DNA of 64,000 bases, taken from Sphingobacteriales bacterium (lineage in GTDB: Bacteria > Bacteroidota > Bacteroidia > Chitinophagales > CAIOSU01). The position numbers and the translations under genes were made by a program. The notes beneath the pieces were generated by a model. The model saw only the letters and a program-made list of their open reading frames with translations. It was not told the origin of the DNA and did no database searches. The stretch is from positions 26,896 to 90,895 of the forward strand of contig JAIXOI010000057.1 in NCBI GenBank assembly GCA_027486795.1, given 5' to 3'. Of this stretch, positions 3,818 through 51,084 are shown one piece after another (position 1 is the first letter of the stretch; each line of letters opens with the position of its first letter).

Positions 3818-3825
3818 TAGCTTTG
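3818..3825 (+). promoter_or_regulatory. Candidate Bacteroidota -7 promoter box (TAGCTTTG = TAnnTTTG), 4 nt before the ATG at 3830
   Basis: Exact match to the TAnnTTTG consensus. No clear -33 TTTG at the proper spacing. Confidence 0.4.
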
Positions 3826-3829
3826 CACC

Positions 3830-4141
3830 ATGTCTCCAAACCGATTGCGAAATATAATGATTGGCATTACCTTGGCATCGGTGGTGGTGATGGTAGTGGC
3901 ATCGTATGTACTGAAGGATACGCCGCGCCAAGGCGGGTTTGTAAAAACTACCCCAAGTGGCCTAAGCCAACAAAACAAAAAGGAATACTACCCTACAGGC
4001 GAGCTGCGTGCCGAGGGCATGATGGATGGTTACTATAAAGAGGGCGAATGGATATATTATCGCAAAGATGGTAGCGTTGAGTTGGTAGAATATTACCACC
4101 AAGGCAATGTGGTTGATAGCAGCGCATTGGAAAGAAAATGA
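3830..4141 (+). CDS. Small membrane-anchored MORN-variant repeat protein
   Basis: One N-terminal TM segment (IMIGITLASVVVMVVASYVL), then YYPTGELRAEGMMDGYYKEGEWIYYRKDGSVELVEYYHQG, a MORN-variant/YwqK-like repeat pattern. Confidence 0.55.
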   Translation: MSPNRLRNIMIGITLASVVVMVVASYVLKDTPRQGGFVKTTPSGLSQQNKKEYYPTGELRAEGMMDGYYKEGEWIYYRKDGSVELVEYYHQGNVVDSSALERK

Positions 4142-6911: not shown

Positions 6912-7823
6912 ATGAAAACCATCTGGCTCTTAACTCTTACCACCATTTTGTTTATCGGTTGCCATTCCGCCTCAGAATCTTCAGATGCTGAAAGTTACAG
7001 TTACGCTTCCACTGAGGCTGACTTAGTATCCAAAGAAAAGTCTGCACCTGAACCAGCGGCATCTCCATCTGTCAAGGTAACCACGAACGGGTTTACTGAT
7101 GCTAACCTAAGTGGTTCGTTTGCAGTTAACCAGCCTTCTACTCCAACCATTAAAACGCCCGACAAAATCATTAAAACGGGCTACATTGAAATGGAGGTAG
7201 ACAATTATGCCAAAACCCTTTCCGATTTAGCCCAAAGGGTACAAGCCGCCCAAGGGTATATTAGTAGCCAAAATGAGCAGCGCGACAACTACCGCATTAC
7301 CAATACCTTGAGCATCAGGGTAGTGAACCAAAACTTCGATGCCCTAATCAATGGACTTGGTGAAATAGCAAAAAAAGTAGTGAGTAAAAGTGTGAACATG
7401 CAGGATGTAAGTGAAGAATATACTGATGTAGCCGCTCGTTTAAAAACCAAAAAGGAAGTAGCAGCGCGCTATAGCGACATTCTGAAATCAGCCAAAACCA
7501 TAAAGGATATTTTAGCGGTCGAGGAGCAATTGCGTGTCATCCGCGAAGAGATTGAATCTTCGGAAGGGCGATTGAAGTACCTAAACGACCAAGTATCGTA
7601 CAGCACTATTACGTTGCAAATATATGAGGAGCTTGAGTACCATGAGCCTGCCGCCCTGCAAGCTAATTTTGGCCAAAAGCTGCTATCGGCAGTTACCGGT
7701 GGCTGGAACGGTTTGCTTGGTTTTACTATTGGGTTGGTAACCATATGGCCTATGCTAATAGTAATAGTGATATCGGTTGTGCTTTTAGTTCGCAGGGTAA
7801 GGCGCAGAAGGGCAGTGGCCTAA
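6912..7823 (+). CDS. DUF4349-like lipoprotein with a C-terminal TM anchor
   Basis: Lipobox (LFIGC), a central coiled-coil region, and the C-terminal TM plus basic tail (WPMLIVIVISVVLLVRRVRRRR) characteristic of DUF4349 proteins. Confidence 0.55.
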   Translation: MKTIWLLTLTTILFIGCHSASESSDAESYSYASTEADLVSKEKSAPEPAASPSVKVTTNGFTDANLSGSFAVNQPSTPTIKTPDKIIKTGYIEMEVDNYAKTLSDLAQRVQAAQGYISSQNEQRDNYRITNTLSIRVVNQNFDALINGLGEIAKKVVSKSVNMQDVSEEYTDVAARLKTKKEVAARYSDILKSAKTIKDILAVEEQLRVIREEIESSEGRLKYLNDQVSYSTITLQIYEELEYHEPAALQANFGQKLLSAVTGGWNGLLGFTIGLVTIWPMLIVIVISVVLLVRRVRRRRAVA

Positions 7824-7864
7824 ATTCATTACTTGCCAGTATTTTGTTAATTTGCAGGCGTAGC

Positions 7865-8692
7865 ATGAATCAGCCCGCAACTATACCCCATTTTGATGTG
7901 CCTGAAGGCAAAAAAGTGTACTTCATTAGCGATGTGCACCTCGGTACGCCCGATGCCAACAGCAGCCGAGTACGTGAAACGTTGTTGGTTGATTGGCTTA
8001 CTGAGATAAGTATAGATGCCGCAGCATTGTTCATTGTTGGCGATTTGTTCGATTTTTGGTACGAATACCGCAAGGCTGTGCCCAAGGGTTATGTGCGGGT
8101 GTTGGGCAAATTGGCGGAGCTGCGCGACAAGGAATTGCCTATCTATTTTTTTACGGGCAACCACGACCAATGGATGTGGGACTACATGCAGCATGAACTA
8201 GGTATACCCGTTTTCAAAAAAGAGCAGCAGACCATTATCAATGGTAAAAAGTTCTTTATTGCTCACGGTGATGGTCTTGGCCCCGGCGACCACGGCTACA
8301 AGTTCATCAAAAAGATATTTACTAACCCGTTTTTCCAATGGTGCTTTCGTTGGGTGCATCCTGATGTTGGCATTACTATTGCTGAGTTTTGGAGCCGCCG
8401 CAGCAGATATGCTAATGGCCCCGTGCTAGAGCATTACTTAGGCGATGATAAGGAGTGGCTGGTGCAGTTTAGCCAAAGCGTGCTGCAAAAAGAACATTTT
8501 GATTACTTAATTTTTGGCCATCGGCACTTGGCGTTGGATATTACCTTCCCTTCGGGTAGCAGGTACCTAAACCTTGGCGATTGGCTCAATTACTATACTT
8601 ATGCCGTATTCGATGGGCAAGACATACAATTACTTTCGTATCGCGATGCTGACCCTAGCCTTGATGTGCTGGTGCGGAAGCTTGGCAGCTAG
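7865..8692 (+). CDS. lpxH: UDP-2,3-diacylglucosamine diphosphatase (LpxH-like metallophosphoesterase)
   Basis: Motifs DVHLG, GDLFDFW, GNHD, HGD and GHRH in LpxH order. I trimmed the ORF to the ATG at 7865 (MNQPATIPHF) because the longer ORF overlaps the preceding gene. Confidence 0.7.
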   Translation: MNQPATIPHFDVPEGKKVYFISDVHLGTPDANSSRVRETLLVDWLTEISIDAAALFIVGDLFDFWYEYRKAVPKGYVRVLGKLAELRDKELPIYFFTGNHDQWMWDYMQHELGIPVFKKEQQTIINGKKFFIAHGDGLGPGDHGYKFIKKIFTNPFFQWCFRWVHPDVGITIAEFWSRRSRYANGPVLEHYLGDDKEWLVQFSQSVLQKEHFDYLIFGHRHLALDITFPSGSRYLNLGDWLNYYTYAVFDGQDIQLLSYRDADPSLDVLVRKLGS

Positions 8693-9428: not shown

Positions 9429-9454
9429 GGTTCCGAGTTGCGGGTTACATTTTA

Positions 9455-9520
9455 GCCCCTTTAGGGGCGTAAAGTTGGTAACTATTGAAACAACAAATAG
9501 TCCATAATCCCTTTAGGGAT
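9455..9520. repeat. Two REP-like hairpins upstream of the RAYT gene (GCCCC-TTTA-GGGGC and ATCCC-TTTA-GGGAT)
   Basis: Hairpins at 9455-9468 and 9507-9520 share a CCC-TTTA-GGG core. Confidence 0.7.
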
Positions 9521-9565
9521 GATACATACACAACACTTATAAGTGCACTTAAACCAAAATTGCAC

Positions 9566-10027
9566 ATGGCAAATACCTACACTCAAATCCATTTGCAGAT
9601 TGTCTTCGCGGTTAAATACCGAGGTGCTATAATTGACAAGACCTGGAAAGAAAATTTGTACCGTTATATAACTAGAATTGTTCAGGCCAATAACCATAAG
9701 CTTTTGGCTATAAATGGAATGCCTGACCATATTCATTTATTTGTAGGAATGCGACCAACTCAATCCGTTTCTGATCTATTGCAAGATATAAAAGGTAGCT
9801 CCTCAAAATGGATTAACGATAACAAACTGGTAAAAGGTAAGTTTGAATGGCAAGAGGGCTATGGAGCTTTTTCTTACGCAATATCACAAATTGATGATGT
9901 CATTAAGTACATAAACAACCAAGAAGAGCATCATAAAAACAGGTCTTTTCGGGAGGAGTATTTAGCATTTCTGCAGAAATTCAAGGTAGATTATAATGAG
10001 CTGTATATTTTTAAGGATTTGGTTTGA
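9566..10027 (+). CDS. REP-associated tyrosine transposase-like protein (IS200/IS605 Y1_Tnp family)
   Basis: MANTYTQIHLQIVFAVKYR..., HUH motif (PDHIHLFVGM), and a C-terminal Tyr region (WQEGYGAFSY...YINNQEEHH). The start was moved to the ATG at 9566 because the upstream part of the tracked ORF covers the hairpins. Confidence 0.8.
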   Translation: MANTYTQIHLQIVFAVKYRGAIIDKTWKENLYRYITRIVQANNHKLLAINGMPDHIHLFVGMRPTQSVSDLLQDIKGSSSKWINDNKLVKGKFEWQEGYGAFSYAISQIDDVIKYINNQEEHHKNRSFREEYLAFLQKFKVDYNELYIFKDLV

Positions 10028-10077
10028 TTTTAATGCATATCACATCCAGTTATGGTTATGCCCGCAATAAGTGTGTG

Positions 10078-10142
10078 CCGCCCCTACAGGGCGGTGTGTT
10101 ATGGTCATTGACTTTTCTACCAACATTTCGTCCCTGTGGGAC
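10078..10142. repeat. Two REP-like hairpins downstream of the RAYT gene (CCGCCC-CTACA-GGGCGG and GTCCC-TGT-GGGAC)
   Basis: Hairpins at 10078-10094 and 10130-10142, of the same CCC-loop-GGG type as the upstream pair. Confidence 0.7.
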
Positions 10143-10157
10143 TTTTGCATGTTATTT

Positions 10158-10235
10158 CCAACTCGGAATTCGCAACCAGTAACCCGCAACTACATTTTTT
10201 CGAACTCGCAACCCGTAACTCGCAACTCGTAACTA
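10158..10235 (+). repeat. Heptamer-periodic array, G[CT]AACNC family (two blocks of 5 units)
   Basis: CCAACTC GGAATTC GCAACCA GTAACCC GCAACTA (10158-10192), then CGAACTC GCAACCC GTAACTC GCAACTC GTAACTA (10201-10235), ending 10 nt before the prfA ATG. Confidence 0.85.
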
Positions 10236-10241
10236 TCTTTG
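10234..10241 (+). promoter_or_regulatory. Candidate -7 promoter box TATCTTTG, 4 nt before the prfA ATG
   Basis: Exact TAnnTTTG. The same TATCTTTGCCC string is found upstream of rpsL. No -33 TTTG at canonical spacing. Confidence 0.4.
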
Positions 10242-10245
10242 CCCC

Positions 10246-11319
10246 ATGCTAGAGAAACTAGAACAATTAAAGAACAAGTGGGAAGACCTAGAGCAGCGCC
10301 TTTCAGATCCGTCGGTATTGTCTGACCAGAAGCGCTTTAAGCAGGTGAGCAAAGAGTATAAAGACTTAGGTGTAATAGTAGCTGCGTATAGAAAGTACAA
10401 AAACGTAATGGACAATATCCGGAGCAATAAAGAACTACTGCGTACCGAAAAAGATGAAGAGTTTAGGGAAATGGCAAAGCTCGACCTTGCCGAGTTGGAA
10501 ACACAGCAAGAGGAAATGGAGGCAGATATCCGTATGCTTTTGGTGCCGAAAGACCCAGAAGATGAGCGCGATGTGATGGTGGAGATACGCGCCGGAACAG
10601 GTGGCGACGAGGCCGGCATTTTTGCCGCCGATCTTTTTCGCATGTACACCCGCTTTTTCGATTTGCAGGGATGGAAGTATGAAGTGTTGAACGAAAGCCC
10701 AGGAACCTTAGGTGGCTACAAAGAGGTAGTAATGGAAGTAATCGGCGATGAGGTGTATAGCGTTATGAAGTATGAAAGCGGGGTGCACCGTGTGCAGCGT
10801 GTGCCCGCTACTGAGTCGCAAGGCCGCATACACACCTCGGCTGCATCGGTGGCTGTAATGCCAGAGGCTGATGAAGTAGATGTGCACCTCGACCCTAAAG
10901 ACATTAAAGTAGATACTTTCCGCAGTAGCGGTGCAGGTGGCCAGCACGTAAACAAAGTGGAATCGGCAGTGCGGATGACACACATGCCTACCGGTATAGT
11001 AGTGGAGTGCCAAGCAGAGCGCAGCCAGATAAAGAACCGCGAATCGGCAATGAAGAGTCTGCGTACCAAGTTATATGAAGTTGAGTTGGAAAAGCGCAAT
11101 GCCGAAGTGGCAGCAAAGCGCAAAACCCTCGTTTCAACTGGCGACCGTAGTGCCAAAATACGCACCTACAACTACCCGCAGGGGCGCATTACCGACCACC
11201 GAATCGGCTTTACGAGCTACAATTTACCCGATTTTATGGGAGGTAACATCAACGAAATGATACAAGCGCTGCAATTGGCCGAAAATATGGAGAAACTCAA
11301 GGCTGGCGGACTAGCTTAA
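10246..11319 (+). CDS. prfA: Peptide chain release factor 1
   Basis: GGQHVNK motif, an RF1-type PxT tripeptide (RVPATESQGRIHTS), and a length of 357 aa. Confidence 0.95.
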   Translation: MLEKLEQLKNKWEDLEQRLSDPSVLSDQKRFKQVSKEYKDLGVIVAAYRKYKNVMDNIRSNKELLRTEKDEEFREMAKLDLAELETQQEEMEADIRMLLVPKDPEDERDVMVEIRAGTGGDEAGIFAADLFRMYTRFFDLQGWKYEVLNESPGTLGGYKEVVMEVIGDEVYSVMKYESGVHRVQRVPATESQGRIHTSAASVAVMPEADEVDVHLDPKDIKVDTFRSSGAGGQHVNKVESAVRMTHMPTGIVVECQAERSQIKNRESAMKSLRTKLYEVELEKRNAEVAAKRKTLVSTGDRSAKIRTYNYPQGRITDHRIGFTSYNLPDFMGGNINEMIQALQLAENMEKLKAGGLA

Positions 11320-12906: not shown

Positions 12907-13779
12907 ATGGATCGATTGTCTTACTGGCTTGTAATAGGTTTTCTTTACCCGCTATCGAAGTTACCATTCGCAGCGTTGTATTTTCTTTCCGATTTTGCCT
13001 ATTACATAATGTACTACCTAGTGCGCTATCGTCGCAAGGTGGTAACCCAAAATCTGTCCAGAGCATTTCCCGAAAAAACAGAACAAGAGATAACGGCTAT
13101 CGCAAAAAAGTTTTACAGTAGCTTTTGTGATATCATTATCGAGAATGTTAAATTTCTTACAGTCAGTGCCAACGAACTAGAGCAGCGTTTCCAGATAACG
13201 AACCATGAGGTGGTGGATGAGTTATACCAGCAACGCCGCAGTGCTATTACTACCTTGGGCCACATGGGCAATTGGGAAATGGCCGGCCTCAATGCCAGCC
13301 ATACCGTGGGGCATCATTCGTTGGCCATATACAAGCCACTTAAAAACAAACACTTTGATGCGCTGGCTCGTAAAATGCGCGCACGATTTGGTATGGAACT
13401 AGTGGCCCAGAACCGCATGCGCCATTTGCTAACTACCTTGGATAAAGAAGCCTGCCTATTCCATTTTATAACCGACCAGACCCCAGGTGGCAAAGCCCCA
13501 AGCCATTGGATGACCTTCATGAACCAAGAGGCACCTATATACCTTGGTACCGAACGGGTGGCTAAAATGACCAACTTACCCGTTTTCTATTGCCACATTC
13601 TTCGTCAAAAACGCGGCTATTATACGTTAGAGTTAAAAGTAGTAACCGATAACCCTAGCACTTGCGCCCCCAATGAGATTACCGAAAGGCACACCCAATT
13701 GCTGGAAGCCAACATCCGTGAGCAGCCCGAAAGCTGGCTTTGGAGCCATAAAAGGTGGAAGCATAGGAAGCCCAATTAG
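12907..13779 (+). CDS. Lysophospholipid / lipid A biosynthesis acyltransferase (LpxL/HtrB family)
   Basis: N-terminal membrane helix, an HX4(D/E) acyltransferase motif (GHMGNWEM), and about 290 aa, as in the LpxL/LpxM family. Confidence 0.7.
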   Translation: MDRLSYWLVIGFLYPLSKLPFAALYFLSDFAYYIMYYLVRYRRKVVTQNLSRAFPEKTEQEITAIAKKFYSSFCDIIIENVKFLTVSANELEQRFQITNHEVVDELYQQRRSAITTLGHMGNWEMAGLNASHTVGHHSLAIYKPLKNKHFDALARKMRARFGMELVAQNRMRHLLTTLDKEACLFHFITDQTPGGKAPSHWMTFMNQEAPIYLGTERVAKMTNLPVFYCHILRQKRGYYTLELKVVTDNPSTCAPNEITERHTQLLEANIREQPESWLWSHKRWKHRKPN

Positions 13780-13810
13780 GAAATTTGGTAATGTGCTAAT
13801 TTGGAAATTA
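13779..13810. repeat. Octamer-periodic array GGAAATTT GGTAATGT GCTAATTT GGAAATTA
   Basis: Period 8, starting on the last base of the acyltransferase stop codon. AATTTGGAAAT (13798-13808) is the exact inverted partner of 13840-13850. Confidence 0.8.
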
Positions 13811-13841
13811 TCTATTTTATTTGAGTAATGGTTAAACCCAT

Positions 13842-13873
13842 TTCCAAATTTTCAAATTGACTCATTTTCAAAT
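13842..13873. repeat. Octamer-periodic array TTCCAAAT TTTCAAAT TGACTCAT TTTCAAAT (inverted partner of 13779-13810)
   Basis: Period 8. It overlaps the last about 8 codons and the stop codon of the transporter gene at 13852. TTCCAAATTTTCAAATTGA (13842-13860) recurs exactly at 43645-43663. Confidence 0.8.
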
Positions 13874-14892
13874 TGATTGCGACTCGCCAACCGTTGCGCA
13901 ATAATACTAGCTACCAGCAACTGCAAGGCGTGGTAAATCATAATCGGTAGAAGTATAATACCTGTCATACTGCTATCCGCAAAAAGCACTTTACTCATTA
14001 CGGTGCCTTGTACCAGGCTTTTTTTGCTGCCGCAAAACTGCGCGGTAATGGTATCCTCTCTATTAAATTTTAATAGTTTACTCACCAAATGCACTATACC
14101 ATACACGGTAACAAAGAGCCCTAACATGCCCAAGCCAAGCAGTAATAAAGCAGTAGCGCTAAAGCCTACAAATAGGTCCATGGTAAATGAGTGGCAGAAG
14201 GAGGTGTAAATAATAAGGAGGATGATAATTTGATCGAAGTAGCGCAATTTCATGCAATGCTTAGCCGTAAAACCTCCGAAGCGCCTATGTAATAATATAC
14301 CGAGCACAACAGGCACTATAACCTGTACGGTGAGCTTTAGTATCACGTCGCCTATCACATAATCGTCGCTTGTGGCTGCTATTACCAGCCCCATCCATAG
14401 AGGTGTTAAAAACACTCCTATAAGGCTACTGATGCTGGCATTGAATATGGCAGCGGGTATATTGCCCCCTGCAATAGATACCATTACTACCGAGGATGAT
14501 ACGGTAGAGGGTAATGAAGCTAAGAAAAATACCCCCAACCACAAGGTGTTGTTATCGGCATCCGGAAAAAGGAACCGAGTACTATATATAATAGCGGGAA
14601 ACAGAATAAACGTGGTGGTGTGAATGGTAGCGTGCAAACGCCAGTTTTTGAGGCCAGCTTTCATTTTCTCGGGGCTAAGCTTCAAGCCATAGAAGAAGAA
14701 AATAAGCGATACACCATAGGTAGTAAACTTACCCAGCGATACAGGCCCATCATAATTGCCAGGGCCGGGCAAAAGATAAGCCAGTCCAATCATGCCAAGC
14801 AGGGCTAGAATGAACCAGTCAAGACCCGCTTTGGCAGCGGTTGCACGTAGGGTGGCAAACGATAGGATAGAGGGGGCTGGTTTGGTCGTCAT
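13852..14892 (-). CDS. Bile acid:sodium symporter (BASS/SBF-like, YfeH-type) family transporter
   Basis: 346 aa polytopic membrane protein with an SBF-like pattern (GLKLSPEKMKAGLKNWRLH, LPSTVSSSVVM). Confidence 0.75.
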   Translation of the reverse strand: MTTKPAPSILSFATLRATAAKAGLDWFILALLGMIGLAYLLPGPGNYDGPVSLGKFTTYGVSLIFFFYGLKLSPEKMKAGLKNWRLHATIHTTTFILFPAIIYSTRFLFPDADNNTLWLGVFFLASLPSTVSSSVVMVSIAGGNIPAAIFNASISSLIGVFLTPLWMGLVIAATSDDYVIGDVILKLTVQVIVPVVLGILLHRRFGGFTAKHCMKLRYFDQIIILLIIYTSFCHSFTMDLFVGFSATALLLLGLGMLGLFVTVYGIVHLVSKLLKFNREDTITAQFCGSKKSLVQGTVMSKVLFADSSMTGIILLPIMIYHALQLLVASIIAQRLASRNQFENESI

Positions 14893-37801: not shown

Positions 37802-38338
37802 ATGGCATATATCGATTTACCAAAAGAATTGCCGGGCATTTTAGGCCCAATGACCTTTAGGCCCGAAACAGCAAAACACCTTAATGCCCTGGCAGAAACG
37901 TTGCTGAGAGGACCATCAACACTTACTTCAGGAGAGCGCGAATTGATTGCGGCGTATGTGTCGCATCAAAACAATTGTTTGTTTTGCCACTCATCGCATG
38001 GGGCGGCTGCGGCGCACCACTATGGGCGCAACTATGAGCTGGTAGACCAAGTGAAAAACAATTATCAATCGGCTCCAATATCCGATAAGCTTAAAGCCTT
38101 ATTGGGCGTTGCTGGCAAAGTGCAGAAAGGTGGTAGGCACGTAACCCCAGAAGATATTGAGGCTGCCCGTGCCAAAGGAGCTACCGACCTAGAAATACAT
38201 GATACCGTGCTTATTGCCGCTGCCTTTTGTATGTTTAACAGGTATGTGGATGGCTTGAACACTTGGGCACCGGCCGAAACCCTTGCTTATGATGATATGG
38301 GCAAGCGCCTAGCTGAAGTAGGTTATAACAGTTTCTGA
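37802..38338 (+). CDS. Carboxymuconolactone decarboxylase / AhpD-like (peroxidase-related) family protein
   Basis: GERELIAAYVSHQNNCLFCHSSHG (CxxC-H motif of AhpD-like/CMD proteins); 178 aa. Confidence 0.65.
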   Translation: MAYIDLPKELPGILGPMTFRPETAKHLNALAETLLRGPSTLTSGERELIAAYVSHQNNCLFCHSSHGAAAAHHYGRNYELVDQVKNNYQSAPISDKLKALLGVAGKVQKGGRHVTPEDIEAARAKGATDLEIHDTVLIAAAFCMFNRYVDGLNTWAPAETLAYDDMGKRLAEVGYNSF

Positions 38339-38360
38339 GAATATCGATGATACTTGGTAT

Positions 38361-38394
38361 AGAGGCATTTCGAAAGGGATGCCTCTTTTTATTT
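38361..38394 (+). terminator. Rho-independent terminator after the CMD-family gene
   Basis: AGAGGCAT-loop-ATGCCTCT followed by TTTTTATTT. Confidence 0.75.
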
Positions 38395-38397
38395 GAC

Positions 38398-38697
38398 TTA
38401 CTCTTCAACAATTACGAAAACCTCTTCGTTTTCTTTTTTCATTAAGTACTCTTCCCGTGCAAATTTCTCCAGTTTCTCGGAATTGCTAAACAAGCCTTTT
38501 GCTTCTGCTTCTACCTCTACGGCCTTTACTTGGTAGTATGCTTTTTCCCTTTCAAGGTCGGTAAGCTCTTGCTTGAGCTTAAATTGGGTAACGAGGTTGT
38601 GCCTATCGAAAAACACCAGCCATACCAAGAAAACCAAGGAGGTAAGCACATACTTGTTTCGCAAAAAGGATGGTATGGTGATGTTAGGTATTTGCAT
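38398..38697 (-). CDS. Septum formation initiator (FtsB/DivIC-like) protein
   Basis: 99 aa from MQIPNITIPS: one TM segment (LTSLVFLVWLVFF), then a coiled coil (LKQELTDLEREKAYYQ). The tracked 201-aa ORF was trimmed because its 5' part overlaps eno and the intergenic repeats. Confidence 0.55.
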   Translation of the reverse strand: MQIPNITIPSFLRNKYVLTSLVFLVWLVFFDRHNLVTQFKLKQELTDLEREKAYYQVKAVEVEAEAKGLFSNSEKLEKFAREEYLMKKENEEVFVIVEE

Positions 38698-38720
38698 TGG
38701 TGTAAAGGTAGAAAATATTG

Positions 38721-38752
38721 AGACACAAGACACAAGACATAAGACACAAGAT
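38721..38752. repeat. Heptamer array AGACACA AGACACA AGACATA AGACACA AGAT
   Basis: Period 7. 38721-38738 is the exact reverse complement of 38831-38848 (18 nt). Confidence 0.9.
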
Positions 38753-38785
38753 TTGTTGCGTTGTAGCAAAATTTGTTCAAAGCAA

Positions 38786-38828
38786 CCTAAAACAAAAGAA
38801 TGCCCGAAAACTTGTTTTCGGGCATTCT
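38786..38828 (-). terminator. Rho-independent terminator of eno (15-bp perfect stem)
   Basis: AGAATGCCCGAAAAC / GTTTTCGGGCATTCT (38797-38811 / 38814-38828). On the minus strand it is followed by TTTGTTTTAGG. Confidence 0.8.
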
Positions 38829-38831
38829 TAG

Positions 38832-38863
38832 TCTTGTGTCTTGTGTCTGAAATCTTGTGTCTA

Positions 38864-38866
<3 letters not shown>
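38832..38866. repeat. Heptamer array TCTTGTG TCTTGTG TCTGAAA TCTTGTG TCTATCA (inverted partner of 38721-38752)
   Basis: Period 7. The last unit contains the eno stop codon (38864-38866). Confidence 0.9.
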
Positions 38867-40248
<1,382 letters not shown>

Positions 40249-40250
40249 AA

Positions 40251-41348
40251 CTATAGCATTGCCACAAAATCGTCAAACAAATAGCGGCTATCAATAGGTC
40301 CAGGGCTACTTTCTGGGTGGTATTGTACCGAGAAAGCGTTTTTACCTTTTACTTTGATACCTGCAACGGTATTGTCGTTTAAGTTTACATGGGTTACCTC
40401 AACTTTGCCGCTATTTTGAGCATCTTCAAACTGCACGCTAAAACCGTGGTTTTGCGAAGTAATTTCGCATTTACCGGTTACCAGGTTCTTTACTGGGTGG
40501 TTCAAGCCACGGTGGCCATTGAACATTTTATAGGTACCGATGCCGTTGGCCAAAGCTAATATCTGGTGCCCCAAACAAATGCCAAATGTCGGCTTGTTGG
40601 TATTCAATATTTCTTTAGTGGTTTCAATGGCATAAGGCATAGAAGCCGGATCGCCAGGGCCGTTAGAAATAAAATAGCCATCGGCACCCCAAGCCTGCAG
40701 TTCGGCAAAGGGGGTTTTGGCCGGGAATACTTTGGTATATACTCCGCGCTCATTTAAGCAGCGCAATATGTTTTTCTTGATGCCCAAATCTAAAACAGCT
40801 ACGCGCTTTGGGGCATTTTCGGCACCCGTATAGTACACTTCTTTGGTGCTAACCACCGAGCTTAACTCCAATCCTTCCATTGATGGGGTCTCGGCCAATT
40901 TGGCTTTTAGCACCTCAAGGTCGGTAGTTTCCGATGAGATTATGGCGTTCATGGCGCCAGCGCTGCGAATGTGGCGCACAATTGCTCGGGTATCCAAGTC
41001 GCAAATTGATACCACACCCTCATTTTCCAAATACTCCTGTATACTCAAGGTAGCTTGGTAGCGGCTATACACTTTACCTGAGTAGTTTTTAACAACTAGG
41101 CCAGCTATTTTTACCCCATCGCTTTCAACGTCAATTTCGTTTACGCCATAGTTGCCTATGTGGTCGCCGGTCATTACCAATATTTGGCCGTAGTACGATG
41201 GGTCAGTAAATACTTCCTGATAGCCAGTCATGCCAGTGTTAAAGCAAATTTCGCCAGTTGTTGTACCAATTTTTCCGGCAGATTTGCCATAAAAAGCGGT
41301 TCCATCTGCTAGCAGCAGCACTGCTTGTTTGGGGCCGTTTTCAGTCAT
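40251..41348 (-). CDS. carA: Carbamoyl-phosphate synthase small (glutaminase) subunit
   Basis: AVLLLADGTAFYGKS..., a GATase triad context (PTFGICLGHQ, ...HPE), with the start set at MTENGPKQ (41348). Confidence 0.9.
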   Translation of the reverse strand: MTENGPKQAVLLLADGTAFYGKSAGKIGTTTGEICFNTGMTGYQEVFTDPSYYGQILVMTGDHIGNYGVNEIDVESDGVKIAGLVVKNYSGKVYSRYQATLSIQEYLENEGVVSICDLDTRAIVRHIRSAGAMNAIISSETTDLEVLKAKLAETPSMEGLELSSVVSTKEVYYTGAENAPKRVAVLDLGIKKNILRCLNERGVYTKVFPAKTPFAELQAWGADGYFISNGPGDPASMPYAIETTKEILNTNKPTFGICLGHQILALANGIGTYKMFNGHRGLNHPVKNLVTGKCEITSQNHGFSVQFEDAQNSGKVEVTHVNLNDNTVAGIKVKGKNAFSVQYHPESSPGPIDSRYLFDDFVAML

Positions 41349-49669: not shown

Positions 49670-51037
49670 CTAAAACAACCGCTCATACAACTCCTGCACC
49701 TTATTTACGGCTATCACTTCAATATTATACTTCCTTAGGTCGAGGCCTTTTACGCTGGCGCCACTTACAAATATTTTCTTGAAGCCTAGCTTGTCGGCTT
49801 CGCTAATGCGCTGATCGATGCGGTTTACGGCACGTATTTCGCCAGATAGGCCTACCTCGCCACTAAAGCAATAAGTGGGCGGCACCACTTGGTCTTCGAA
49901 AGAAGATAGTAAGGCGCAAACCACTGCCAAATCAATGGCTGGGTCTTCTACGCGCAGGCCACCCGCTATATTCAAAAACACGTCTTTGGTTCCAAATTGA
50001 AACCCAGAGCGTTTCTCTAGTACTGCCAATAGCATCTGCAATCGGCGCAAGTCAAACCCTGTGGCGCTGCGCTGGGGGCTACCATATACGGCGTGGGTTA
50101 CCAATGCTTGGGTCTCAATGAGCATGGGGCGCATGCCTTCAATAGTGCCAGCAATGGTTACACCGCTAAGCACTTCTTCGTGCTGGTTGAGGAGGAATTC
50201 GCTAGGGTTGCTTACTTCGCGCAGGCCACCATTGCCCATTTCGTATATGCCCAGTTCGCTGGTGCTACCAAAGCGGTTTTTGCTGGTGCGCAGTATGCGG
50301 TAGTTGTAATTGCGGTCGCCTTCAAATTGCAATACCGTATCTACTATGTGCTCCAATACCTTTGGGCCAGCTATGCTGCCTTCTTTGGTGATGTGTCCAA
50401 TGAGCATTACGGGTGTGGCGGTTTCTTTGGCGTAGCGTTGCATTTCGCTGGCGCACTCCCGTATTTGCGATACACTGCCGGGTGTAGACTCAATATACTG
50501 CGACTGCAAGGTTTGTATCGAATCAATAATCACCAAACCTGGCTTCAATTCCTTTAGGTGGCGGAAGATTTTGTATGTAGCCGTTTCGGTAAGAATGTAG
50601 CAGTTTTCTGCTTTCAATCCCAACCGCCTAGCGCGCATAGATATTTGCTCAGCACTTTCCTCGCCGCTTACGTACACCACTTTTAGTTTCGGCACACTCA
50701 GCGCCAACTGCAGCATCAGTGTTGATTTGCCGATGCCCGGGTCGCCGGCAATAAGCACCAGTGAGCCTGGCACAATGCCACCGCCCAATACGCGGTTCAG
50801 CTCTTGGTCGGGCATACTGATGCGGTAGGTCTGTTGCTCTTCAATATCCTCCAACAATTGCGGAACGGCCTCTGCCGAGCCAATGTCCTTTTTAAGCTGT
50901 GCCTTTGGTGTATCATCCTTCTCTAAAACTTCTTCTACAAAGGTGTTCCATTGCCCGCACGACGAGCAGCGGCCAATCCACTTGGGCGATTGTGCGCCAC
51001 AATTCTGGCAGCTATAGATGGTGCGTATTTTCGACAT
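49670..51037 (-). CDS. radA: DNA repair protein RadA/Sms
   Basis: Zinc finger CQNCGAQSPKWIGRCSSCGQWNT, Walker A GDPGIGKST, KNRFG motif and a Lon-like C-terminal domain. Confidence 0.93.
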   Translation of the reverse strand: MSKIRTIYSCQNCGAQSPKWIGRCSSCGQWNTFVEEVLEKDDTPKAQLKKDIGSAEAVPQLLEDIEEQQTYRISMPDQELNRVLGGGIVPGSLVLIAGDPGIGKSTLMLQLALSVPKLKVVYVSGEESAEQISMRARRLGLKAENCYILTETATYKIFRHLKELKPGLVIIDSIQTLQSQYIESTPGSVSQIRECASEMQRYAKETATPVMLIGHITKEGSIAGPKVLEHIVDTVLQFEGDRNYNYRILRTSKNRFGSTSELGIYEMGNGGLREVSNPSEFLLNQHEEVLSGVTIAGTIEGMRPMLIETQALVTHAVYGSPQRSATGFDLRRLQMLLAVLEKRSGFQFGTKDVFLNIAGGLRVEDPAIDLAVVCALLSSFEDQVVPPTYCFSGEVGLSGEIRAVNRIDQRISEADKLGFKKIFVSGASVKGLDLRKYNIEVIAVNKVQELYERLF

Positions 51038-51049
51038 GAAACAAATATA

Positions 51050-51084
51050 GTATCAAGTAGTGAGTATCAAGTATCAAGTACTAG
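51050..51084. repeat. Heptamer array GTATCAA GTAGTGA GTATCAA GTATCAA GTACTAG
   Basis: Period 7, starting 13 nt upstream of the radA start codon (51037, minus strand). Confidence 0.85.

Follow-up and report, generated by a model that had tools for sequence, protein, structure and literature searches.

Why does the short spacer between the enolase gene eno and a DivIC/FtsB-like septum-formation gene carry one long inverted repeat folded around another? The question concerns 64,000 nucleotides from a Sphingobacteriales bacterium of the Chitinophagales (GenBank assembly GCA_027486795.1, contig JAIXOI010000057.1, positions 26,896 to 90,895); this whole stretch is called the window below, and coordinates count from its first letter. 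An earlier note on this DNA had described a perfect inverted repeat of AGACACA heptamers around a second hairpin, and had likened the whole to repetitive extragenic palindromic (REP) elements and bacterial interspersed mosaic elements (BIMEs). The reading preferred here, with a probability of roughly 0.6, is plainer: the spacer is a composite of ordinary parts, a selected terminator flanked by fast-evolving heptamer arrays of the gene-boundary kind, whose mutual pairing is recent and not visibly maintained.

The spacer is 166 bp long, and carA, eno and the divIC-like gene all lie on the minus strand. The eno open reading frame (ORF; 38864..40147) encodes 427 aa, with Pfam Enolase_N and Enolase_C on an identical protein, and ends in a TGA at 38864-38866; the divIC-like gene (38398..38697) encodes 99 aa with the Pfam domain DivIC (PF04977, E = 1.9e-10). 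The outer inverted repeat is present exactly as first noted, AGACACAAGACACAAGAC (38721-38738) being the perfect reverse complement of 38831-38848 over 18 nt. It is even longer than that: the arms 38721-38751 and 38832-38862 are 84% complementary over 31 nt, and a second perfect outer pair of 13 nt joins 38742-38754 to 38850-38862. In the sense direction, the post-stop array next to eno (38831..38863, minus) reads UAG-ACA-CAAG-AUU-UCAG-ACA-CAAG-ACA-CAAG-AC, and the pre-start array next to divIC (38721..38751, minus), the inverted partner of 38831-38862, reads UCUUGUG UCUUAUG UCUUGUG UCUUGUG UCU. Tandem Repeats Finder (TRF) reports a period of 7 in both arms, with 4.4 copies and 91% matches at 38721-38751 and 2.6 copies and 100% matches at 38831-38848. 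A 14-mer from the arms, with up to two mismatches, occurs five times in the window, always within the two arms, against a chance expectation of 0.26; none of 100 shuffles reaches five. Judged by their sequence, both outer arms are tandem arrays of a heptanucleotide, CAAG-N3 on one strand and CTTG-N3 on the other, and belong to a gene-boundary intergenic class. Two details of the first description need correction: the eno stop codon does not lie inside the right array, which only abuts the TGA and itself begins with a second in-frame stop, TAG (38861-38863), and the left array stands 23 nt, not 24 nt, from the ATG of the divIC-like gene, whose A is at 38697.

Computed folding bears out the nested double hairpin as well. 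The minus-strand RNA of 38698-38870, a check that the earlier note had proposed, folds at -65.5 kcal/mol, far below its shuffles (-29.7 +/- 3.7 kcal/mol; z = -9.6), and the single-stranded DNA of the same segment folds at -42.9 kcal/mol (z = -9.4). Such an outer helix is indeed more structure than an intrinsic terminator needs. When the fold is restricted to the terminated eno RNA, the 31-nt eno-side array is unpaired and adjoins a stable terminator hairpin, and the divIC-side array alone is unstructured (z = -0.31). An Rfam scan of 38300-40400 (E <= 1) found no family at its gathering score, only terminator-like sub-threshold matches such as SprX at 31 bits versus 80.

The inner hairpin (38796..38829, minus) has the features of an intrinsic terminator. 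Its arms, 38796-38811 and 38814-38829, are 100% complementary over 16 nt and form effectively 15 bp with a 4-nt loop; the terminator consensus scan gives 15 pairs, 6 of them G-C, a loop of 4 and a U-rich tail. The stem begins 34 nt past the eno TGA on the same strand, the tail after the hairpin on that strand is UUGUUUUAGG, and the U-tract proper, UUUUGUUUU, occupies 38789..38797 (minus), with its first two U inside the stem. On its own the hairpin folds at -24.1 kcal/mol (z = -5.9). Comparison with relatives strengthens the case. In an alignment of the window with five of them (A1: L099, L097, L086, L091 and L088), 95.6% of the cells in the stem are paired and 5 of the 15 pairs have changed on both sides; sliding the partners by 1-3 columns as a control leaves 0 pairs changed on both sides. 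A compensated U-A to C-G change already separates the window from L099, and more distant relatives carry, at the same place, a G+C-rich hairpin with a T-tract of unrelated sequence. On this consensus and covariation evidence the inner hairpin with its U-tract is the Rho-independent terminator of eno, as had been proposed, and by the same comparisons it is the only part of the spacer that shows structure-preserving selection.

The history of the outer arms can be followed through a graded series of relatives recovered by their enolase and DivIC proteins; among species representatives the best enolase match is 81%, to an uncultured Chitinophagaceae. Arm duplexes were compared with shuffled arms, which reach -11 +/- 3 kcal/mol. 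The metagenome-assembled genome L096 from NCBI and five Logan assemblies have a spacer identical to the window's, arrays included: AGACACA units after eno, then the terminator and a remnant of a PEMT-family gene, then TCTTGTG units, with an arm duplex of -39.4 kcal/mol. L099 (JGI; eno DNA 90.3%) has the same PEMT-less allele between AGACACA and TCTTGTG arrays, with a duplex of -24.0 kcal/mol. L097 and L098, whose DivIC protein is identical (97.3% at the nucleotide level), carry AGTATCA units after eno, the terminator and a complete 202-aa PEMT-family gene, then TCTTGYG units, and their duplex reaches only -18.8 kcal/mol. In L086 (eno DNA 93.9%), which also has AGTATCA units, the terminator and PEMT, the divIC-side array is the exact complement of the eno-side array (-50.9 kcal/mol); this complementarity is perfect over 27 bp, extends to an irregular unit (AGATGTG/CACATCT), and spans 0.75 kb and the whole PEMT gene. 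L091 (eno DNA 91.4%) has the same arrangement and the same divIC-side array as L086 (-30.9 kcal/mol). In L088 (eno DNA 81.4%), AGTATCA units are followed by the terminator only, and their partner is the array in front of PEMT (-28.0 kcal/mol); the TCTTGTR array in front of its divIC pairs weakly with the eno-side array, at -18.4 kcal/mol. A TCTTGYG or TCTTGTR array before divIC is common to L087, L088, L097 and L099. L087 has no eno-side array and has lost PEMT independently, with about 60 nt kept, and L089 has both AGTATCA and ACAAGAC arrays after eno. The earlier note's refuting condition, arrays that are absent or unrelated here in close relatives, thus has a mixed outcome: arrays do stand at the same positions, their unit sequences are other ones, and in L097 and L098, the closest relatives with PEMT, they are not complementary.

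These comparisons indicate how the window's allele came about. In alignment A1 the AGACACA array lies exactly in register with the AGTATCA arrays of the relatives, with CAAG invariant and the 3-nt filler switched in every unit, and about 10 nt of the PEMT 3' end are retained in the window and L099. In the window this putative remnant covers 10-12 nt including the TGA stop, at 38777..38788 (minus), as judged from the alignment and from the gene maps of L086, L088, L091 and L097. From the relatives' arrays, the in-register alignment and the PEMT remnant together, the ancestor most likely had AGTATCA-type units after eno and TCTTGTG-type units before divIC, and the window's inverted repeat is most likely derived. 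The 202-aa PEMT/ICMT-family methyltransferase gene lies between eno and divIC in L086 (11399-12007), L088, L091, L097 and L098 and is absent from the window, L096 and L099; apparently, very close relatives have lost it on two or more occasions. L099 also lacks the CMD-family gene downstream of divIC. Turnover of units is seen at the same loci, with AGACACA versus AGTATCA after eno and TCTTGTG versus TCTTGAT before divIC, and the carA-eno spacer is altogether different in L086. The eno and divIC gene trees disagree on the window's closest relative; recombination between close species has therefore probably carried the spacer allele from one to another.

The following sequence of events would account for the present structure. 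Arm complementarity would have arisen together with the loss of the PEMT-family gene, when all eno-side units changed, in register, from AGTATCA to AGACACA, which complements the older TCTTGTG units on the divIC side. The most likely route for this step is templated conversion through a switch of strand or template from one nearby array to another, the CAAG/CTTG core being already common to both. In the resulting allele the eno-side array would sit in the 3' untranslated region (UTR) of eno and be single-stranded once the transcript is terminated, and the divIC-side array would belong to the promoter or leader of the divIC-like gene, shortly before its start. The 27-bp outer helix could then form only in read-through RNA or in single-stranded DNA, where it would clamp the spacer and bury the divIC upstream region. 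An origin of the arms by one-step inverted duplication was rejected: the irregular units are not mirrored in the other arm (AAGATTTCAG versus TCTTATG), and CAAGATTT is already present after eno in relatives. L086 differs here, its irregular unit being present in mirror image (AGATGTG / CACATCT).

L099, the only diverged relative that shares the window's allele, offers a view of what has happened to the pairing since. Its arms differ from the window's by four substitutions, all four of which break pairs and none of which is compensated, and its spacer folds at -44.9 versus -65.5 kcal/mol. On this evidence the outer-helix pairing shows no sign of maintenance by selection. Among the nearest sequences, the Logan contigs L001-L005, from five independent assemblies with an identical enolase, all end at window position 38722, the outer end of the divIC-side array, 142 nt past the eno stop. 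This shared end could mean an assembly-graph branch at 38722. At 18 nt the perfect inverted repeat could not collapse 31-mers, so a sequence or copy-number polymorphism just beyond the array is possible.

In the window's clade heptamer arrays form a class found in intergenic DNA only. Arrays were called at 12 of 14 matches at lag 7, with lags 4-12 compared and local shuffles as control. In about 200 kb of the window's clade there are 26 intergenic period-7 arrays and none in coding sequence; the other lags give at most 4 intergenic arrays, the next best period 4 intergenic plus 2 coding, and the shuffles 0 at lag 7. In 80 eno loci from other Bacteroidota, where TRF was also run, period 7 again ranks first (42 arrays in 22 loci). 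Thirty-nine of 66 arrays lie within 25 nt of a stop or start codon. An inverted partner is found within 150 nt for 17 of 66 arrays, against 3 of 256 controls, and a direct partner for 2 of 66; all 17 paired arrays are situated between a stop and a start. Inverted pairs are concentrated in the window's clade, the Chitinophagaceae isolate L019 (four spacers), Spirosoma L058 and L094, and nested builds like the window's occur in L019 (one spacer with an inner hairpin exactly alike), L058, L094 and the window's own carA-eno spacer. The arrays also follow a base bias on the sense strand: those before starts contain 10.8% G and those past stops 9.6% C. The eno-divIC pair has a polarity opposite to this general G-poor/C-poor bias. 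Unit sequences differ completely among loci and include AACCAAT, AACTCGC, AAATCAT, TGGTTAY and others.

A second instance of the architecture lies directly upstream, between carA (ORF 40251-41348/41387, minus) and eno. This spacer (40150..40243, minus) holds a post-stop TGGTTAY array that begins 7 nt past the carA stop and an inverted pre-start AACCAAT array that reaches the eno ATG, and it folds at -31.0 kcal/mol. The carA-eno spacer of L086 has unrelated, non-complementary arrays instead (AGACAYA, ACATCGT). L094 and L006, with eno DNA 92.9% identical, have different inverted pairs after carA and the same AAATCAT array before eno. Other period-7 arrays in the window include AACTCGC units before prfA (10160-10234) and AGTATCA units upstream of radA (51048-51083, TAGTATCAAGTAGTGAGTATCAAGTATCAAG). 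Another spacer (13774-13874) has two short inverted period-8 arrays, of AATTTGGA units and then of ATTTCCAAAT/TTTTCAAA units; the inverted-array layout is not strictly limited to period 7.

One array family is dispersed. A 33-nt AGTATCA-type array with an irregular unit, TAGTATCAAG-WWGTG-AGTATCAAGTATCAAGAT, occurs at no fewer than six loci in the clade; a strict (CAAG-N3) x 3 pattern missed the window's arrays with their irregular units, and dispersed copies were sought by blastn-short. Copies in the sense orientation follow eno, carA (L089, L093) and an aldehyde dehydrogenase gene (L091); copies in the inverse orientation precede divIC (L086, L091), PEMT (L088), radA (window 51048-51078) and a GMC oxidoreductase gene (L091). 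Without exception (12 of 12 copies) the array is turned with its TAG end towards the ORF, sense past stops and antisense before starts, and the radA-upstream array of the window is 93.5% identical to the post-eno array of L086. To judge from this shared irregularity and identity, the dispersed 33-mers are copies of one sequence, not independent slippage products. A metagenome scan for ACACAAGACACAAGAC returned more than 120 matches on contigs of 31-64% G+C and mixed origin, with an inverted partner within 1.5 kb in 6 of the 80 that were read; it was dropped as evidence on the eno-divIC element and shows only that AAGACNN arrays are widespread.

Where promoters lie decides which RNA could carry which arm. 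The Bacteroidetes -7 promoter box is TAnnTTTG (PMC7641319). Across 183 genes, the distance from an exact box to the ATG peaks at 4 nt and at 25-29 nt, and three exact boxes in the window, TATCTTTG (10234-10248), TATATTTG (51035-51049) and TAGCTTTG (~3818-3832), have the 4-nt distance, in front of prfA, radA and a small ORF, respectively; those of prfA and radA stand directly downstream of their arrays. Boxes at 4 nt suggest leaderless mRNAs. The exact TAnnTTTG is absent from the eno-divIC spacer, which has two 5-of-6 matches only. One is the block TACCTTTA (38703..38710, minus), 5 nt before the divIC-like ATG, with a leaderless-type geometry, a putative function as a box, and conservation in the window, L086, L088, L091, L097 and L099. 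The other, AAATTTTG, falls in the conserved block CAAATTTTGCTACA (38762..38775, minus), a candidate promoter that in relatives comes directly after the PEMT stop. A sigma-70 promoter scan, whose model does not apply to Bacteroidetes, found nothing in the spacer. If the -7 boxes are promoters, the pre-start arrays of prfA, radA and divIC are promoter-upstream DNA and not in the mRNAs; if the second box, AAATTTTG (38762-38775), is a promoter, the divIC-side array would lie inside a leader of about 65 nt. Promoter positions, and with them the assignment of arms to transcripts, are predictions from such motifs.

Several observations weigh against the view that the pairing is incidental to the composite. 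The arms of the window and L099 are 93% identical (4 differences in 54 paired positions), above the central spacer and no less than eno (90%), and the arrays are therefore not free-drifting junk. The strand rule relative to genes, G-poor before starts and C-poor past stops, implies that arrays in general are under some selection. The eno-side array has become complementary to a downstream array again and again, with AGACACA in the window and L099, with AGTATCA across PEMT in L086 and L091, and in L088, and a single compensated pair at the repeat's inner end (AAGAT/ATCTT versus AAGAC/GTCTT) distinguishes L086 from L091; the recurrence could reflect selection for pairing rather than mutational bias. 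At least three concerted switches of the arms to a new unit family have taken place among the relatives (window/L099, L086/L091, L088), one of them over 0.75 kb. This concerted switching of both arms is what is best explained by a functional pairing system, in which a post-stop array is kept complementary, by selection or active conversion, to the array of the next or another gene. If such a system existed, the eno 3' end would pair with the divIC upstream region, in cis as a clamp or in trans as antisense, and the AGTATCA family would link eno/carA 3' ends to the starts of radA, PEMT, divIC and other genes. As a general account it is improbable, a little more so than its cis form taken by itself. 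In that form, which is unlikely, read-through RNA would fold into a 27-bp interrupted helix that acts as a second barrier or RNase III-type site and insulates divIC from a strongly expressed eno. The very stable fold (-65.5 kcal/mol), the U-rich stretch CAAUAUUUUCU that follows the outer helix, the recurrence of the stop-array/start-array layout in co-directional spacers (17/17 paired arrays) and the re-established complementarity in several lineages all fit a clamp. Against a clamp, the L099 arm substitutions are uncompensated in 4/4 cases; in L086 and L091 a whole gene and a terminator separate the arms by 0.75 kb, an implausible setting for a cis hairpin, and the U-rich tail is missing in L086 and L097. 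Distance is irrelevant if the pairing acts in trans, which would accommodate L086 and L091: the eno 3' UTR, built like a 3'-UTR-derived small RNA with its array unpaired beside the terminator hairpin, would pair with leader arrays of divIC and other genes in an antisense network, and the dispersed AGTATCA-type element with its orientation rule in 12/12 copies would supply partners. However, the prfA and radA arrays lie upstream of an exact -7 box and that of divIC upstream of a 5-of-6 box, which would place them outside the mRNAs if the boxes are promoters, and such a network is very unlikely. Both the clamp and the trans RNA rank lower than the composite of ordinary parts because the L099 changes are uncompensated, the closest PEMT-carrying relatives (L097/L098) are non-complementary and the arrays are probably promoter-upstream.

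The inversion of the arms could also be secondary to binding by a protein, one molecule for every 7 nt, either a cold-shock-domain or S1-type protein on RNA or a DNA factor upstream of the -7 box. The strict 7-nt period with its invariant CAAG/CTTG core and variable 3-nt filler would suit such an array of sites, as would the fixed positions beside start and stop codons and the abutment of arrays on -7 boxes at prfA and radA. The GTCTTGT unit is similar to GTCTTTG/T, the sequence preferred by Bacillus CspB. For TAACTGA heptamer arrays, S1, Csp or CsrA has been proposed (PMC4679880). The units are, however, wholly different among loci, so no single sequence-specific binder fits, and protein binding as the common basis is quite doubtful. 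Least probable of all is that a 142-bp unit was inserted between eno and divIC as a REP/BIME-type element, a REP doublet forming a hairpin (REPIN) or a miniature inverted-repeat transposable element (MITE), moved by a Y1 transposase (a REP-associated tyrosine transposase, RAYT, or an IS200-like enzyme) or another transposase. An extragenic position immediately past a stop codon, two inverted arms, and a related 33-nt array with the same internal irregularity dispersed over six or more clade loci speak for insertion, and the Y1 transposase gene of the window (9566-10027) itself sits between inverted heptamer arrays. Yet the loop consists of the orthologous eno terminator and the PEMT remnant, and both arms have homologous arrays, in place and in register, in relatives. 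There is no target-site duplication, the flanks ...AAATATTG and ATCAGAAA... sharing no direct repeat, and no further copy of the AGACACA arm exists in the 64-kb window. The arms (TGATAGACAC... / ...GTGTCTC) are non-palindromic and lack GTAG, and the only Y1 protein of the window belongs to IS200/IS605 (82 bits, cut-off 55) and scores 30.5 bits against REP_Tyr_transpos (cut-off 80). Membership in the REP/BIME/REPIN group is rejected on the non-palindromic units, the missing GTAG and a Y1 protein, the only one in the window, that does not score as a RAYT, and a MITE on the missing target-site duplication, the locus-specific interior and the arm homologues in place in relatives. Of the REP/BIME idea put forward at the outset only the layout stands, namely inverted pairs that are extragenic and just after a stop codon; the palindromic arms, the GTAG, a recurrence in the window and an element-specific loop that membership would entail were not found.

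An invertible segment (inverton) is rejected as well. The enclosed segment was not seen in inverted orientation, all eight other carriers of the allele (including L096, L001-L005 and L099) having the window's orientation; two further Logan places are similar but were unread, and Logan L092, which carries PEMT, is outside the count. No recombinase is nearby in the Pfam calls for the relatives' loci, whose neighbours are carA, eno, divIC, a CMD-family gene, an HTH gene and gldM, and the repeat is absent in close relatives.

The Y1 elements of these genomes have surroundings of their own. In the window the IS200/IS605-family gene lies in a segment (9430-10233) with hairpin-bearing ends at 9457-9480 and 10079-10135; it is flanked by GTTCCGAGTTGCGGGTTAC just past the stop of the upstream gene and by inverted AACTCGC/AACCCGT units before prfA, and its left junction follows TTAC. 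The arrangement suggests that the element inserted into the loop of an array pair that was already there. L086 has two palindrome-bearing repeats of about 125 nt (GACCCCAAAGGGGTC, GGGGCAACGCCC; 7790-8100) upstream of a second, different Y1 gene (8146-8637). A link to REP/RAYT systems through this gene was discarded, its flanking palindromic repeats being unrelated to the heptamer arrays and absent from the window.

For annotation, the eno-divIC element should not be labelled as a REP/BIME, a MITE, a riboswitch-like RNA or an inverton. What deserves attention is the abundance of period-7 arrays at gene boundaries in Chitinophagales and other Bacteroidota and the strand rule that they follow, G-poor before starts and C-poor past stops. 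In a phylum without Shine-Dalgarno pairing, this rule bears on what makes a good leader. The locus is also a natural experiment: relatives with in-register arrays, different units and a gene present or absent between the arms may help to separate selection from templated mutation. On the practical side, k-mer assemblies break at fixed points in such repeats, and a genome scan can mistake them for structured RNAs. The parts most worth following are the orientation rule at gene boundaries and the concerted switching of arms.

Set beside known systems, the inner part is ordinary and the outer arrays belong to a known, functionally unexplained kind of heptanucleotide simple sequence repeat (SSR). 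REP, BIME and REPIN elements are extragenic, are transcribed with the upstream gene and occur as inverted pairs that form long hairpins past stop codons. The eno-divIC spacer shares that placement and inverted pairing and differs in its non-palindromic units without GTAG, the absence of a high-copy identical family in the window and a locus-specific loop. Invertons are common in Bacteroidetes (for example PMC8748976); the likeness lies in inverted repeats of 18-31 bp around a short, possibly promoter-bearing segment, whereas here there is one orientation, no nearby recombinase and a core cell-division gene downstream. With canonical Rho-independent terminators the inner hairpin shares its G+C-rich stem-loop, its U-tract, its position past the stop and its compensatory changes, and it is nothing unusual; the outer arrays are absent from such terminators.

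The closest relations of the arrays are other heptamer repeats. Among the long SSRs of prokaryotes, heptamers are reported to be the most abundant class (Mrazek et al. 2007, as cited in PMC4679880 and PMC4692102). Xanthomonas GGGAATC arrays lie on average 28 nt past the upstream ORF and vary between close species (Rehm et al. 2015, PMC4692102), and 70 of 186 arrays occur as convergent opposite-strand pairs that may form stem-loops or cruciforms (PMC4692102). TAACTGA arrays stand beside start codons in Beggiatoaceae, cyanobacteria and five Bacteroidetes (MacGregor 2015, PMC4679880); that work found one indirect repeat among 170 sets, proposed a post-transcriptional role, and reported other heptamer repeats in Bacteroidetes spacers (PMC4679880). 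A TAACTGA-like array, AACTGAAAACTGATAACTTATA, with the unit of MacGregor 2015, ends 2 nt before a start codon in L094 (5833-5854). Short tandemly repeated repetitive (STRR) heptamers are known from Calothrix, as cited in PMC4692102, and heptamer repeats near recF and recO of Nostoc have regulatory effects, according to a preprint. Like TAACTGA and STRR heptamers, the present arrays are short (2-6 or more units) and lie a few nt before starts or just past stops; unlike TAACTGA, which is one unit almost always in direct repeats, they comprise many unit families and frequent inverted pairs. With long SSRs and the Xanthomonas GGGAATC arrays they share head-to-tail 7-nt units, an almost exclusively intergenic location, proximity to the 3' end of the upstream ORF, fast turnover and convergent pairs. 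They differ from GGGAATC in belonging to another phylum, in a unit that is not G-rich, has no quadruplex potential and changes from locus to locus, in arms that enclose a separate terminator, and in a unit family that switches in concert between relatives.

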